The translations under genes were made by a program, and so were the position numbers. Below, in pieces: positions 228 through 28,547 of a DNA stretch of 64,000 nucleotides; positions within the stretch are counted from its first letter, which is position 1, and each line of letters starts with the position of its first letter. The stretch lies in IMG/VR virus record IMGVR_UViG_3300008050_000019; one strand, written 5' to 3'. A model generated the notes under the pieces. The model was given only the letters and a program-made list of their open reading frames with translations, did no database searches and was not told the DNA's origin. This DNA is from a virus.

Positions 228-317
228 GTTCCCAGGCTCACCCCTAATAAACCAGATATTTTATCATATAACCCCTTATTTTAATAGGTCCAGTTTATTA
301 GGGGTGAGCCTGGGAAC
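228..317. repeat. Hairpin repeat element, copy 1 (25-bp perfect arms 228-252 / 293-317, 40-nt loop)
   Basis: GTTCCCAGGCTCACCCCTAATAAAC and its exact reverse complement. Core GGCTCAC..CT.ATAAAC is shared with the copies at 8537 and 28470. Confidence 0.85.
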
Positions 318-465
318 ACTGGTTAAACACCTGAATAAAAGATATAATCCTTATTCGATTTCGGTATCAGCTAAGTAAAGGTACATTGCAATTGAGGACC
401 TCACTTTACGAAATTTCTGGTGGATGTGATTCAATACAAACGTCATATGAAACTACTTTCTTAGC

Positions 466-756
466 TTAAGAATCTTCGACCATCTCAGTCGGATACCACA
501 AAGTATCAGGAGGTGAATCATCTTCATCACAATGCCCGACAAGAGCTCGAAAACTTTCGCGCTCAAGGACGCGATACTCAGCAAGATAGCCCTTCTGCAC
601 TTCTGCTAAGCTCAAGAATGCCTTCAACTCAGGAGTTCTTGCCATAGATAATGCATGTGCAATGATCTCTTCGTCAGTTTTCATTAAATTTAACCTCAAT
701 GATCTCTTGGACTCGGTGCAATGACCAGCCAGCTTTTCGTGCTGCAGCTGCTGCAT
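466..756 (-). CDS. hypothetical protein (alternative start MKTDEEII at 684)
   Basis: ORF track. The internal ATG at 684 forms an ATGA overlap with the stop of 674..886. Confidence 0.5.
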   Translation of the reverse strand: MQQLQHEKLAGHCTESKRSLRLNLMKTDEEIIAHALSMARTPELKAFLSLAEVQKGYLAEYRVLERESFRALVGHCDEDDSPPDTLWYPTEMVEDS

Positions 757-886
757 TCGTCAATAAGCCAAAAATGATAGTGTTAAGTAGGGTGGGACTA
801 GATGTAGCCCCAGTGTGGCCGAACTCTACACGTCCGGCCGCAGGTAGAACCGTTTGTTCCGTTTTCATATTAATATTATATAACAA
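674..886 (-). CDS. hypothetical protein
   Basis: ORF track. It competes with the N-terminus of 466..756, so only one arrangement can be right. Confidence 0.3.
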   Translation of the reverse strand: MLYNINMKTEQTVLPAAGRVEFGHTGATSSPTLLNTIIFGLLTNAAAAARKAGWSLHRVQEIIEVKFNEN

Positions 887-916
887 GCATAGAAACTTTA
901 TTACATAATATTAACA

Positions 917-1387
917 TCATTTAAAAAATTCTGAGTACTTTTTTCCGTCTCGGGTAAAATATGCTTCAACCGGTTGACCCGCTCTAGTGCTTCTTGCAGG
1001 ACCAGCCCACTCATAACTGCGGCATACACCATCGTCATAAAATGTCTCGTCTGCAGGTCCATCATCTCTAGAAAGCTTGCCCTTCATATAATATGAAGTA
1101 AAGTGTTTATTGCCGTTGCTATAGAATCCCTCTATTGCAGGACCTCCAATGCGGTGCAGGTGCCCAAACTGTTTGTACTCGCGCCTAAGTATTTCACCAC
1201 TTTTGTACCATATAATGGCAGGACCACCTTCACGATGAAGCTTGCCATTCACTCTGAATTCTTCTCTGTCGAGCCGGCCAACATGATCAAAATGACGCAC
1301 TGCAGGACCACCTTCACGATGAAGCTTGCCATTAAGCTTGTAGGTTTCTCGCTTTAGGGTCCCATCTTTATAAAATGCTTGTTCCAT
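917..1387 (-). CDS. MORN-variant (YwqK-like) repeat protein
   Basis: Repeated units of about 23 aa: NGKLHREGGPA, GHLHRIGGPA, KLSRDDGPA. Confidence 0.75.
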   Translation of the reverse strand: MEQAFYKDGTLKRETYKLNGKLHREGGPAVRHFDHVGRLDREEFRVNGKLHREGGPAIIWYKSGEILRREYKQFGHLHRIGGPAIEGFYSNGNKHFTSYYMKGKLSRDDGPADETFYDDGVCRSYEWAGPARSTRAGQPVEAYFTRDGKKYSEFFK

Positions 1388-1395
1388 ATTTAGAG

Positions 1396-1578
1396 CTAAT
1401 GCTTTCTGTCATCAGAAATGACTACGCCCGGGACTTCCCTTTCTCCGGATTTTAAGTTGAATTTGCTTAAAGTGACTTTAAGTCGCCTATCATCAATTAG
1501 TTTTTGTGCTTCCGCATTTGAGATATGACCAAAACATAACGCTGCCGCTATTGAAAAATCACCTGTAGGTATAGACAT
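1396..1578 (-). CDS. hypothetical protein
   Basis: ORF track, fits the collinear minus-strand array. Confidence 0.45.
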   Translation of the reverse strand: MSIPTGDFSIAAALCFGHISNAEAQKLIDDRRLKVTLSKFNLKSGEREVPGVVISDDRKH

Positions 1579-1592
1579 ATCTGGCCTCTAAC

Positions 1593-25969: not shown

Positions 25970-26776
25970 TTACGCGGCTTCGATCTCTGCTAATTGCTCT
26001 AAAGAGGGCTCTGCGGATTCACTAGTAATATCACCGGCCGCTGCTGCCTTAACTGCGTCTGCAGCAAGTGTTAAGGCTTCACGCTCAATGCGCTTTTCTT
26101 CACGGCGCGCTGAAGCAATCTGGCTCTGAATGTTATATTCACTGGTATCATCTACATGATTGTCGACACCAGCGACTAAAACATCACTATCAAGAATTTC
26201 GCCATCGAGCATTGCTGTTCCTGCAGAAACTTTAAAGATCATACGCTTTGATTTCGCATTTCCTTCATACACTTCGCCGTACCCAGTAAACACAACACTC
26301 GTTTGACGAGGGACATCCATGATGCCATCTCGTAAAGTCTTGCGGCTAAATTGATAGCTGATTAACTGTGTGCCCTTGTCAGGATTAGTTGGTTGAAGGC
26401 CAAGGTTAGCGACGACATTGAATGTATCACCCTCATTGAACTTCTTTTTCTTTGTCTTTGCTTTTGTCTTTGTTGGAGTAATTTGCATAATAGTATCCTT
26501 TTTTGTTTTGGTAAAAATTTTAGGTGAACCAGATATTTTAAGCATCTGGTGTAGAATGGCTAAATGAAATTTGGGAGCACCTTGAACAGGCATCAAAGAT
26601 AATGCCTGAGCGAATAATATATCGATGCGGTCTTTTTTATCAAGAGGGCATGATTTAAGTAATGCTGTAGATACTGGGGTCCCATCATTAACGAGTTGAA
26701 GCGCTTTAGTGATGATTTCTCCAATATCCGTATTAACCATATAAAGAATTATATTACTATAATTCACCTTAGGCAC
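25970..26776 (-). CDS. hypothetical protein, paralogue of 24720..25223 (GTG start; alternative ATG at 26740)
   Basis: ORF track plus shared motifs with 24720..25223. Confidence 0.65.
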   Translation of the reverse strand: MPKVNYSNIILYMVNTDIGEIITKALQLVNDGTPVSTALLKSCPLDKKDRIDILFAQALSLMPVQGAPKFHLAILHQMLKISGSPKIFTKTKKDTIMQITPTKTKAKTKKKKFNEGDTFNVVANLGLQPTNPDKGTQLISYQFSRKTLRDGIMDVPRQTSVVFTGYGEVYEGNAKSKRMIFKVSAGTAMLDGEILDSDVLVAGVDNHVDDTSEYNIQSQIASARREEKRIEREALTLAADAVKAAAAGDITSESAEPSLEQLAEIEAA

Positions 26777-26779
26777 ATA

Positions 26780-27517
26780 TTAATAATTTTTTGTTGCGAC
26801 GTTTGATCCAGCAGGGGATGGATGGTAAAGTTGTTTTGTGGTGGTTGTGTAACCATAATCGAGGATGACGATTCGACCATCAGGAGTTTGCCCCCATTGT
26901 TCTTCGCGGCTCAAGTCGTCAATGACAAGTTCAGTCGTCTTTAAAAGAGAAATCAAAGATTCAGCAAACGAGAAGCACTCTTCATTACAATATTCAGTGT
27001 AATCTTCTTTCTTTCCGCCCCCCATCAGGCCTTTGACTATAAGCGTAATACTGTATAAGCTTGTCCCAAACCTACTCTCGAAAACGTCCTCAGCGCCTCT
27101 GTCCATTGGACGAACAAGCTCTGCTATTAACCATGAATAATCATCGCTATAGTTTGCAATTTTTGTAGTTAACTGCTTTGTTGCAGGGTTAGTGAAAATG
27201 TCAATCTCAGCTTCATTTTGCGCGATCCCTTTTTTATTGTAAGCAACTTTTAGTACATATCTCGTATTTAAGATGTAAGCCTTACGAGATGACCCTGCAT
27301 CAAATTTCTTTAATGTATTATTAGCATACGCAACAACATCTTTTACAGAAGTTAATGACTTCAAATGCTCTAACCTAAATGGTCTCTTCCGCTCTTCAAT
27401 TACAAATTGAACATATTCTTCCAATATTCCCATATTATGTACATATGGCTGTGCTTGTATGAATTGCCTATTTGAGCGTCTTGATAACTTCTTTTTTCTT
27501 AGCTTCTTTTTCGTCAA
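26780..27517 (-). CDS. protein-kinase-like fold protein (putative)
   Basis: YVLKVAYNKKGIAQNEAE (VAxK-Lys plus Glu) and IVILDYGYT (DFG-like). The internal start MGILEE at 27433 would remove the overlap. Confidence 0.4.
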   Translation of the reverse strand: MTKKKLRKKKLSRRSNRQFIQAQPYVHNMGILEEYVQFVIEERKRPFRLEHLKSLTSVKDVVAYANNTLKKFDAGSSRKAYILNTRYVLKVAYNKKGIAQNEAEIDIFTNPATKQLTTKIANYSDDYSWLIAELVRPMDRGAEDVFESRFGTSLYSITLIVKGLMGGGKKEDYTEYCNEECFSFAESLISLLKTTELVIDDLSREEQWGQTPDGRIVILDYGYTTTTKQLYHPSPAGSNVATKNY

Positions 27518-27791
27518 GAATATTATGCTGGTTTATAATTTCGTCAACCGTTGCATTAATAAAGTTGTGATCAGGTTTCACGTTTAAATTGTTTAATAAA
27601 TTAAATAACAACATCCTCATTAAGCCTTTTCTACATGAAATATCTTCATGTTCCGAACTTGAAACAGTAGCATTTGATTCTCTCATAGCATTAGCAATAA
27701 GAATGCTATGATCTCTTTGATCACCACCAAGAACCCAAGGAATGAACTTAAACAGTGTAGCGATGTCTAATAAAGCTTTGTCAACATTCAT
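27468..27791 (-). CDS. hypothetical protein
   Basis: ORF track. Confidence 0.55.
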   Translation of the reverse strand: MNVDKALLDIATLFKFIPWVLGGDQRDHSILIANAMRESNATVSSSEHEDISCRKGLMRMLLFNLLNNLNVKPDHNFINATVDEIINQHNILDEKEAKKKEVIKTLK

Positions 27792-28093
27792 TCAGCTACC
27801 CATAATTCATTCGAGTCTAATACAGGCAACGAATTAATTGTATCACTATCATATGATGTATACTGATCCCAGCCAAGAGAAATTCTGTAACGAAGAGGTA
27901 CAATTAATAACCCTCTTGGATCTGGTTTTTGGCCAAAATGGCCTGTTGTCTTCGAGTAATTCGAGTTTACTTTGGGGCGATCAAGTTTTGCAGATTTTTG
28001 CTTATTCAAGCCCAGTATATCACATGTTTCATGAGCATGCTCTTTTGTTTCAAAAAAGAGTTTTATTGTTCTTTGTTTTTTCTTTGTTGCCAT
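27788..28093 (-). CDS. hypothetical protein
   Basis: ORF track, 4-nt overlap with the upstream gene. Confidence 0.55.
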   Translation of the reverse strand: MATKKKQRTIKLFFETKEHAHETCDILGLNKQKSAKLDRPKVNSNYSKTTGHFGQKPDPRGLLIVPLRYRISLGWDQYTSYDSDTINSLPVLDSNELWVAE

Positions 28094-28405
28094 TTAGTTG
28101 TTATCCGTCGCTTCTTCATCCCATGTTATAGAGATAAGACCAGTATTTTGAGGAACTCTTTTTTCATGTAAGCCCTCGTGATTAGCTTCGCGGCCGCAAG
28201 ATACAGCAAGCGCATGCATGATATTAGTTGTTGCAGTGCAAACATCTTCTTCAGCCCATTCATCGTCGGAACCTTTTAAAAGCTCAACGCTCTTATTTGT
28301 ATCACCACCCCGAGGAGTATTTCTGTGCTCCATTGGTCCTGCTTTCCTATGTTTAGCAACGACTGCAACCCAATTTCTAGGCTTGTTTCTTGCAGGTTTT
28401 TTCAT
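28094..28405 (-). CDS. hypothetical basic protein
   Basis: ORF track. Confidence 0.55.
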   Translation of the reverse strand: MKKPARNKPRNWVAVVAKHRKAGPMEHRNTPRGGDTNKSVELLKGSDDEWAEEDVCTATTNIMHALAVSCGREANHEGLHEKRVPQNTGLISITWDEEATDNN

Positions 28406-28469
28406 TACAAGTATATTATATAACGATCAAAACATTATTGCATATTATGTAAATTATATTGAAATCATC

Positions 28470-28547
28470 AGGCTCACTTCTAATAAACGGAATAATTTTA
28501 TATAGGCCAATATGATTTTAACATCTAAGTTTATTAGAAGTGAGCCT
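28470..28547. repeat. Hairpin repeat element, copy 3 (19-bp arms 28470-28488 / 28529-28547, 40-nt loop)
   Basis: AGGCTCACTTCTAATAAAC and its exact reverse complement. The loop differs from copies 1 and 2. Confidence 0.85.

Follow-up and report, generated by a model that had tools for sequence, protein, structure and literature searches.

Hairpin repeats scattered between genes are a familiar feature of bacteria and phages. Repetitive extragenic palindromic (REP) hairpins stabilise upstream mRNA, as in the malE-malF case. Phages T7 and lambda, the latter at sib, employ RNase III hairpins between or after cistrons. RNase III cuts duplexes of about 20 bp or longer with little sequence specificity, and a perfect helix of 26-30 bp is a textbook substrate of this enzyme and a strong block to exonucleases. 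In REPINs, which are inverted doublets of REP sequences, the spacer length and the ability to pair matter, compensatory changes are common, and defunct remnants are found (PMC3116915). Co-transcribed Correia elements are bound by RNase III, which cleaves or protects them, and the expression of neighbouring genes is altered (PMC2649163). The promoter-early stem-loops (PeSLs) of T4-like phages are short terminator-type stem-loops, e.g., A3-4G3-loop-C3T3-4, joined to a conserved sigma-70-type promoter (PMC4122927). Here, a family of long intergenic hairpins is described from IMG/VR virus record IMGVR_UViG_3300008050_000019. The family opens no long-standing question, and it is compared with these systems below.

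The window, i.e., the whole stretch of 64 kb that was analysed, probably stems from an uncultured marine jumbo phage. Its parent contig measures 308,593 bp (ENA), of which 84 kb were read. The coding strand of almost the entire window is the minus strand. Positions are those of the window unless preceded by the name of a locus.

Three intact hairpins and two decayed relatives

A first-pass annotation, made from the letters of the window, had reported a hairpin element in three copies. These were confirmed at their sites: the arm pattern AGGCTCACNNCTNATAAAC has exactly six perfect matches, which form three inverted pairs, while 0.41 matches with up to three mismatches are expected in shuffled sequence. 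Copies 1 to 3 are oriented alike, and each measures exactly 78 nt over its outer AGGCTCAC...GTGAGCCT. Copy 1 (222-323, minus strand) holds a perfect 26-bp helix (227-252/293-318); the 25 bp given earlier start one base later. The earlier stem lengths of 22 and 19 bp were correct for copy 2 (8529-8626, minus strand; helix 8537-8558/8593-8614) and for copy 3 (28462-28559, minus strand; helix 28470-28488/28529-28547), the most diverged of the three. With the extensions described below, the elements, of ~92-104 nt, reach from 227 to 318, from 8531 to 8620 and from 28464 to 28553. Homology continues past the stem for about 13-16 nt on the minus-strand 5' side and for a few nt on the other side, so that the unit is about 100 nt long; the flanks are unrelated. 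No credible open reading frame (ORF) lies inside any element.

The stems, 19-30 bp long and of mixed composition, enclose about 40 nt. Their variable positions read CCCCTA, CTCCTG and CTTCTA, and each is mirrored exactly in the opposite arm, which bears out the compensatory covariation proposed earlier. The outer 8 bp and the inner 6 bp of the arms are invariant among the copies. In the alignment of the three minus-strand sequences, 96.4% of the cells are paired and six pairs are changed on both sides. Only 2 of 500 column shuffles match the observed pairing, and sliding the partner by one column drops it to 48%. Single-strand folding gives -34 to -57 kcal/mol, with z scores of -7 to -11.5 against dinucleotide shuffles; for copy 2, the minus strand reaches -56.0 kcal/mol vs -48.1 on the plus strand. 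In the minus-strand RNA, the helix of copy 1 is predicted to run on inward via U-G, G-U and G-C to about 30 bp. In copy 2, three G-U pairs lengthen the helix outward to 8531-8620 (28 bp), and in copy 3 one mismatch is followed by a 5-bp outer extension that includes two G-U pairs.

As noted in the first pass, these are not classical terminators. Direct reading of both flanks of copies 1 to 3 found no U-tract 3' of the stem on either strand, and the stems are far too long. A consensus terminator scan did not return the three copies, though it found a canonical U-tract terminator at 30653-30689, after the gene for a protein resembling the major vault protein (MVP). This terminator has a perfect 16-bp stem with AAAA/TTTT flanks and is bidirectional. 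Since ordinary U-tract terminators are present elsewhere in the phage, the hairpins seem to be a different device.

The family proved larger than the three members first counted, with at least five in the sequence read. A covariance model was built from the minus strands of copies 1 to 3 and run with filters off. In the window, it returned only these copies, with 111 bits for copy 1 (77 on the plus strand), 115 bits for copy 2 and 97 bits for copy 3 (54 on the plus strand); the minus-strand advantage amounts to 34-44 bits, though the model was made from that strand. The same model was run on the 9 kb left of the window (locus L222) and identified a decayed copy 4 at L222:11958-12061, about 570-673 nt left of the window on the parent contig and on the minus strand of L222 (26 bits, E 2.6e-4). 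Copy 4 is clearly homologous, but its two arms have drifted apart: they form 10 Watson-Crick and 2 G-U pairs at 19 positions, and the fold has a z score of about 0. A second decayed member, copy 5 (60959-61059, plus strand), scored 63 bits (E 9e-19) in an nhmmer profile search whose model included copy 5 itself. Aligned locally with copy 1 in an independent pairwise comparison, copy 5 scores 45, while shuffled sequence averages 16.8 (standard deviation 2.8). Copy 5 is homologous across the whole unit; its arms retain 7 Watson-Crick and 3 G-U pairs of 19 positions, and its fold z score is -1.5 to -1.8. No copy was found in the 10 kb right of the window. Candidates at 42504, 27264 and 47631 were rejected as chance matches or coding sequence.

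All copies occupy gaps between ORFs, as the earlier description stated. The intact copies each lie 34-147 nt past the stop codon of a minus-strand ORF, in sense orientation to it. Copy 1 follows the stop of ORF 466-756(-) by 147 nt. A 166-aa MORN_2 gene (L222:11172) has its ATG 11 nt past the 3' end of copy 1, and its Shine-Dalgarno sequence, AAGGA, directly adjoins the stem. An independent JGI assembly, L223 (Ga0208299_1001785), ends at L223:11174, 13 nt beyond copy 1. Contig breaks are a typical effect of a repeat or a strong palindrome on assemblers. Copy 2 is flanked by convergent genes: the stop of ORF 8652-8960(-) is 34 nt away on one side, and on the other that of ORF 6865-8523(+), the convergent 552-aa gene, is 14 nt away. 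The latter belongs to the only plus-strand gene pair of the window (6404-8523), so that one copy does end the sole plus-strand island, as reported. Copy 3 follows the stop of ORF 28602-28871(-) by 51 nt and precedes the ATG of ORF 28094-28405(-) by 62 nt; its sequence is 100% identical in four independent metagenome contigs. Of the two neighbours of copy 4, both on the minus strand of L222, a 157-aa MORN_2 gene has its stop 34 nt ahead of the copy and a 62-aa gene follows after 86 nt, so that copy 4 is in sense to local transcription. Copies 1 and 4 are mutually inverted around a two-gene segment, copy 4 being inverted along with its flanking genes. Copy 5, in the 192-nt gap between ORFs 60404-60868(-) and 61061-61477(-), is oriented opposite to copies 1 to 3 and hence antisense to the minus-strand genes around it.

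The surroundings of the copies are an ORFan-rich, non-syntenic part of the genome. A cassette with a common neighbour gene at each copy was considered and rejected, the adjacent small proteins being unrelated and matching no family. A promoter inside or beside the element was likewise rejected: matches stayed at chance level and were not conserved.

Selection, strand preference and distribution

The loops of the copies give a measure of their divergence. Those of copies 1 and 2 agree at 35 of 40 positions, as their near identity in the first-pass annotation implied. The loop of copy 3, described there as different, is a diverged homologue: it matches that of copy 1 at 16 of 40 positions in an ungapped comparison, and shared blocks emerge once indels are allowed. 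Between intact and decayed copies, the loops agree at 17-18 of 40 positions. The arms behave differently. In copies 1 to 3 they are identical at 17 and paired at all 19 of 19 positions, whereas the decayed copies pair at 10-12 of 19. Since the loops of copies 1 and 3 are as diverged from each other as from those of the decayed copies while the arms were kept, the arms have been selected and are not merely young. Judging from these sequences, the perfect arms of the intact copies are maintained by selection, and the decayed copies are an internal neutral control. Recent duplication without divergence, which had been named as a possible refutation, is thus rejected for copy 3 relative to copies 1 and 2, where loops are saturated and arms conserved. 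For copies 1 and 2, a recent duplication could account for the similarity. Three intact copies and two relics make this a clean, small case of hairpin selection with a built-in neutral control.

The pairs that adjoin the perfect helices differ between the strands. Five alignment columns contain seven cells that read G-U on the minus strand but A-C on the plus strand, with no reverse case; copy 1 has them at its inner end, copies 2 and 3 at their outer ends. The minus strand, which is mRNA-sense for copies 1 to 3, is predicted to form helices of 30, 28 and 19+5 bp, the plus strand helices of 26, 22 and 19 bp. As G-U occurs only on the sense strand, a single-stranded sense form is favoured over a symmetric duplex-DNA or cruciform site. 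The folding predictions therefore favour the single-stranded sense strand as the acting form, as RNA or, less likely, as single-stranded DNA (ssDNA). Among the roles suggested in the first pass, this observation disfavours the DNA cruciform.

Searches outside the phage returned no further member. L219-L221, relatives found via the neighbouring ATPase, which is 51-56% identical, have retained the gene order MVP-ATPase; in 20 kb, neither this hairpin nor any other long inverted repeat was found. Scans of IMG/VR that used a single arm, the two outer arms or a relaxed pattern of both arms yielded chance matches or none. Phage-type arms had 0 matches in 185,579 species genomes, one genome each, in two scans, and no copy of the element was found among GenBank phages. 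In Rfam, only tRNAs reach the gathering threshold in the window; permissive scans of the three sites produced generic long-hairpin matches of the miRNA-precursor type, which scored 11-44 bits where the thresholds are 60-230. The copies are present in the sister contigs, whose identity is at least 99.5%, so that no presence/absence polymorphism was visible, and no indel or rearrangement between strains ends at a copy. The hairpin family is, as far as these sequences were searched, lineage-specific. Since the relatives are without the element, comparative covariation across species is impossible.

Possible roles of the element

We tentatively favour the reading of a lineage-specific dispersed repeat that is co-transcribed and acts as an intercistronic RNA hairpin, as a target of RNase III or as a stabiliser of mRNA ends. 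Copies of a palindromic repeat of about 100 nt, comparable to the REP, ERIC and Correia repeats known from bacteria, would lie in intercistronic spacers and be read through in long polycistronic minus-strand transcripts. The sense RNA is predicted to fold into a helix of 26-30 bp capped by a variable top of about 40 nt. A helix of this length would be a substrate of the host RNase III and a strong block to 3' exonucleases. The predicted helices of 30, 28 and 19(+5) bp would provide the two or so turns of double-stranded RNA, or more, that mark RNase III sites. The role would be one of post-transcriptional punctuation, in which the message is cut or ended between cistrons, and the hairpin would set the relative stability of upstream and downstream mRNAs. 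Copy 2 may additionally insulate two convergent transcription units. Copies would spread by duplication, recombination or transposition, and would decay where useless, as copies 4 and 5 may have done. We infer the transcription of the elements, the action of RNase III or exonucleases and the route of spread. If the RNA reading is true, the hairpins would be a compact, sequence-defined form of message punctuation that marks transcript boundaries and points of differential stability in a giant marine phage.

Several observations weigh against this account. Transcription is deduced from gene orientation only. The arm sequence is more conserved than a structural barrier needs, which hints at a sequence-specific protein, e.g., a transposase, a recombinase or one that binds RNA. 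Of a perfect helix, RNase III would cleave both strands and so destabilise the flanking RNAs instead of protecting them; the effect could thus run in either direction. With three intact copies, the G-U asymmetry reaches p ~0.03 only, and the sense orientation of all three could be due to chance (p = 0.25). Furthermore, a sense-strand ssDNA hairpin would tolerate G-T equally, so that RNA and ssDNA are not told apart by the asymmetry. Since the nearest relatives were found without the element and two copies are decayed, no site is indispensable. The first-pass annotation had named a lack of conservation in relatives as grounds for refutation, and no relative was found to carry the element, which leaves its function unproven.

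A possible but less probable explanation is a purely selfish, non-autonomous mobile element without an RNA role. It would be REPIN-like, i.e., an ssDNA hairpin moved by a HuH enzyme of the REP-associated tyrosine transposase (RAYT) type, or it would resemble a MITE, a miniature transposable element with inverted repeats. The conserved arms would then be recognition sites of the enzyme, and pairing would be kept since the transposition intermediate is a hairpin. This explanation would account for the conserved arm sequence and not for pairing alone. The constant span of 78 nt, the conserved arms, the diverged loops and the two relics fit the description of REPINs (PMC3116915), and the arm core matches a Pseudomonas REP class at 13 of 14 nt. 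No direct repeat flanks any copy, and the sequence outside the arms is part of the conserved, partly paired unit; such a lack of target-site duplication is what ssDNA transposition of the HuH type predicts. Relatives share the neighbouring genes without the element, relic copy 5 is oppositely oriented, and MITEs shared by viruses and hosts have been reported (bioRxiv 10.1101/2024.01.18.576219).

Against a selfish element stands that no enzyme and no donor were found in the sequences searched. Neither a transposase nor a RAYT nor an insertion sequence (IS) was recognised by Pfam or PHROGs among about 45 ORFs, taken from the vicinity of the copies and the rest of the window. The species genomes and IMG/VR yielded no phage-type arms, and no parent IS with the same ends was found in either. 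Only five copies are present in 84 kb, and the arms are without the REP dyad and the GT(A/G)G tetranucleotide. Moreover, no presence/absence polymorphism is visible among the sister contigs, and the intact copies are all oriented alike relative to transcription. The earlier proposal of a mobile or recombination element is thus supported by the decayed copies and the absence from relatives, but not by target-site duplications, a transposase or polymorphism. If the selfish reading is true, it would show that hairpin replicators of the REPIN or MITE kind can persist in phage genomes, and the element could help to assign the host. The RNA-hairpin and selfish-element accounts are not mutually exclusive.

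It is unlikely that the copies are atypical terminators or pause sites without a U-tract, dependent on a phage or host factor or on the phage-encoded sigma factor or RNA polymerase modification, which end minus-strand units and, in the case of copy 2, stop both convergent units. The copies do lie just past stop codons in sense orientation, their hairpins are very stable, copy 2 is the sole strong structure at a convergent junction, and the phage has its own sigma-70-family protein (37148-37999). The U-tract is absent on both strands, though, and stems of 19-30 bp with 40-nt tops are far beyond the geometry of intrinsic terminators, while canonical terminators are used in the same genome. Another convergent junction (L222:11672-11694) is without a hairpin. 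Furthermore, copy 1 ends 11 nt before a start codon with no recognisable promoter between, and termination there would silence the gene.

A site acting as duplex DNA appears equally doubtful. It could be a cruciform, a bipartite inverted binding site for a regulator, a recombinase or a replication or partition factor, or a recombination hotspot for cassette shuffling like that proposed for PeSLs. The arms are conserved beyond the needs of pairing (outer 8 bp and inner 6 bp invariant) at constant spacing, the copies lie in an ORFan-rich, non-syntenic region, and copies 1 and 4 are inverted around a two-gene segment. A symmetric site, in contrast, would not select for helix extensions that pair on one strand only (G-U vs A-C). 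Unlike in PeSLs, no conserved promoter lies beside the stem, and no indel or rearrangement between strains has its end at a copy.

Improbable to a still higher degree is a phage-resident REPIN-type replicator derived from a Pseudomonas-type REP, i.e., an ssDNA hairpin moved by a HuH/RAYT-like enzyme encoded by the phage or the host. If true, it would be the first phage-borne REPIN population, and its sequence would offer a clue to the host. A metagenome scan with the arm pattern listed more than 118 soil- or plant-associated contigs (L096-L213), nearly all with atcgcgagcAGGCTCACTCCTACA...TGTAGGAGTGAGCCTgctcgcgat; the matches listed were taken up by these contigs, and any marine copies would not stand among them. 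This family is REP class PF11 of the P. fluorescens complex, which occurs there as REPINs (PMC3686654). An example is the doublet at L170:5731-5805, whose REP class is GTAGGAGTGAGCCTGCTCGCGAT. The phage arm core CAGGCTCACTCCTA matches PF11 at 13 of 14 nt in each phage copy, with 10 of the 14 matching positions imposed by the search pattern and about 12 robust across all five phage copies. Doublet sizes are similar as well (72-77 nt in PF11 vs 78 nt in the phage). A PF11 REPIN profile scored the phage copies at 5-9 bits in the arm core only, with no similarity in the spacer, and the phage arms are without the REP dyad partner GCGAGC and without GTAG. The PF11 match is probably a coincidence because of the positions imposed by the search pattern, the smaller number of robust ones and the marine provenance of the ATPase homologues. 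Common descent of the phage arms and the PF11 REP is accordingly very doubtful.

Integron attC sites, target hairpins of diversity-generating retroelements, N4-type hairpin promoters, CRISPR-like repeats and put/nut antitermination RNAs were considered and set aside, as their geometry does not fit or the integron integrase, reverse transcriptase or Cas proteins are absent from the window.

Phage background and comparison with known systems

The sequence of the window is also held by near-identical JGI and Logan contigs, which are all 99.5-100% and mostly at least 99.9% identical to it. GenBank phages gave no DNA match to the window, and the neighbouring tail-fibre-like protein was likewise without a match. 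The window encodes rIIA/rIIB, a GroEL-type chaperonin, an RNA ligase, a DNA ligase, a sigma-70-family protein, a protein with an MVP shoulder domain and six tRNAs. rIIA and GroEL have distant database matches only and are uninformative on the host. Homologues of the ATPase near the hairpins include Tara Oceans entries, which indicates marine phages.

The tRNA genes (Arg-TCT, Leu-TAA, Arg-CCT, Ile-TAT, Met-CAT and Val-TAC) lie on the minus strand at 3748-5474 and 20909-20980, and the cluster of five sits between hairpin copies 1 and 2. The MVP-like protein (30704-33280, minus strand) combines shoulder and repeat domains and is conserved in the relatives L219-L221. Together with the sigma-70-family factor (minus strand), the GroEL-type chaperonin (43213-44874, minus strand) and a protein with six MopE-type metal-binding repeats and a VWA domain (39667-41532, minus strand), it represents unusual phage cargo. 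Almost all genes of this giant phage are of unknown function. Three paralogous small MORN_2-repeat genes (917-1387(-), L222:11172-11672(+) and L222:12087-12560(-); repeat GKLHREGGPA...) cluster around hairpin copies 1 and 4. ORF 917-1387 carries an internal 84-nt tandem duplication (1218-1375). A search with these paralogues returned no further stretch of the 308.6-kb contig.

Other repeats are present in the window. A second long hairpin at 29183-29280 (98 nt) is made up of two perfect 25-bp arms, of sequence ACTAACGTTGAGTTGTTAGGTGATA and the complement thereof, that enclose a 48-nt spacer richer in G+C. It folds at -51 to -56 kcal/mol (z -9), is unrelated to the three-copy family and is single-copy in all sequence retrieved. 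It lies inside a called 87-aa ORF (29116-29379), which has no homologue there in the relatives; the hairpin could be a further palindromic insertion, or else the called ORF could be spurious. A perfect intergenic palindrome at 17840-17878, with 19-bp arms (GGTTATCCATATGATTTAT/ATAAATCATATGGATAACC) around a 1-nt centre, is located at the gap that precedes ORF 17893-18900 and overlaps the start codon of ORF 17565-17849(-). A further perfect palindrome with 14-bp arms (14218-14254) spans the junction of ORFs 12830-14251 and 14270-15256; the left arm and a portion of the spacer fall inside ORF 12830-14251(-), at its 5' end. Neither palindrome has sequence kinship to the three-copy family. Finally, a motif of about 27 nt, ATTACG..N..AATTAACACA, occurs in three copies 85-86 nt apart at 36216-36413, in the 260-nt gap between ORFs 34867-36171 and 36431-36721, with a fourth copy at 39142-39168. 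The trio was not called by Tandem Repeats Finder; its copies could be promoters or iterons.

Among the known systems, intrinsic terminators, with a G+C-rich stem of about 5-15 bp and a loop of 3-8 nt, differ from the phage element, which does not belong to them. PeSLs are similar in being repeated intergenic motifs of plastic, ORFan-rich parts of large phage genomes and candidate cassette shufflers (PMC4122927, PMC2839356). The phage hairpin, in contrast, is 78-92 nt long, is not flanked by A/T tracts and is not accompanied by a promoter at a conserved distance. With no linked promoter and a hairpin that is too long, it is not a PeSL. MITEs have in common with it perfect terminal inverted repeats, here of 19-26 bp, and the lack of coding capacity; without a target-site duplication, the element is not a DDE-type MITE.

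The MITE-like Correia elements of Neisseria and enterobacterial repetitive intergenic consensus (ERIC) elements are intergenic, about 100-150 nt long, bear long terminal inverted repeats and are transcribed with their neighbours into an RNA hairpin on which RNase III acts (PMC2649163); for the phage element, transcription would be the corresponding step. Correia elements differ by a TA target-site duplication, an integration host factor site and promoter-forming ends, none of which is found in the phage element. There is no sequence similarity to Correia or ERIC elements, and the copy number in the phage is far lower.

The likeness to REPINs is more detailed. Each is an extragenic inverted doublet whose two ends are highly conserved, whereas the spacer keeps its length but is less conserved; compensatory changes that preserve a long hairpin, remnants and the lack of a target-site duplication are common to both (PMC3116915). 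The size is similar, with 71-78 nt between the conserved ends. The phage copies show the doublet structure in their 78-nt span, in arms identical at 17/19 vs loops at 16/40 positions and in six two-sided pair changes. In a REPIN, each end is in itself a REP, a short imperfect palindrome that follows a conserved GT(A/G)G. The ends of the phage element are not REPs as far as their sequence tells, and the element is neither a REP nor a REPIN. The phage arms read ..TTAG/TCAG-GNGTGAGCCT-GGGAACA/AGAAACA/TATAACA, with no partner for GTGAGC and no GTAG, in contrast to the REPs of Table 1 in PMC3686654. Single phage arms do not fold, and neither did the PF11 control in the same test, so that the verdict on REPs rests on reading the sequence. 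Further differences are the absence of a RAYT gene among the ORFs scanned in the part of the genome read, the five copies found there as against tens to hundreds of REPs per genome, and the residence in an AT-rich marine phage instead of a bacterial chromosome.

The T7 hairpins R0.3-R18.5 and lambda sib have no sequence similarity to the phage element, which matches no Rfam family. In T7, an internal loop directs a single nick that leaves a protective 3' hairpin, whereas the lower helix of the phage element is perfect and a double-strand cut would be expected. With these phage RNAs, the element shares the arrangement as repeated, mutually similar intercistronic hairpins in sense orientation, free of a U-tract and with a helix of at least two turns.

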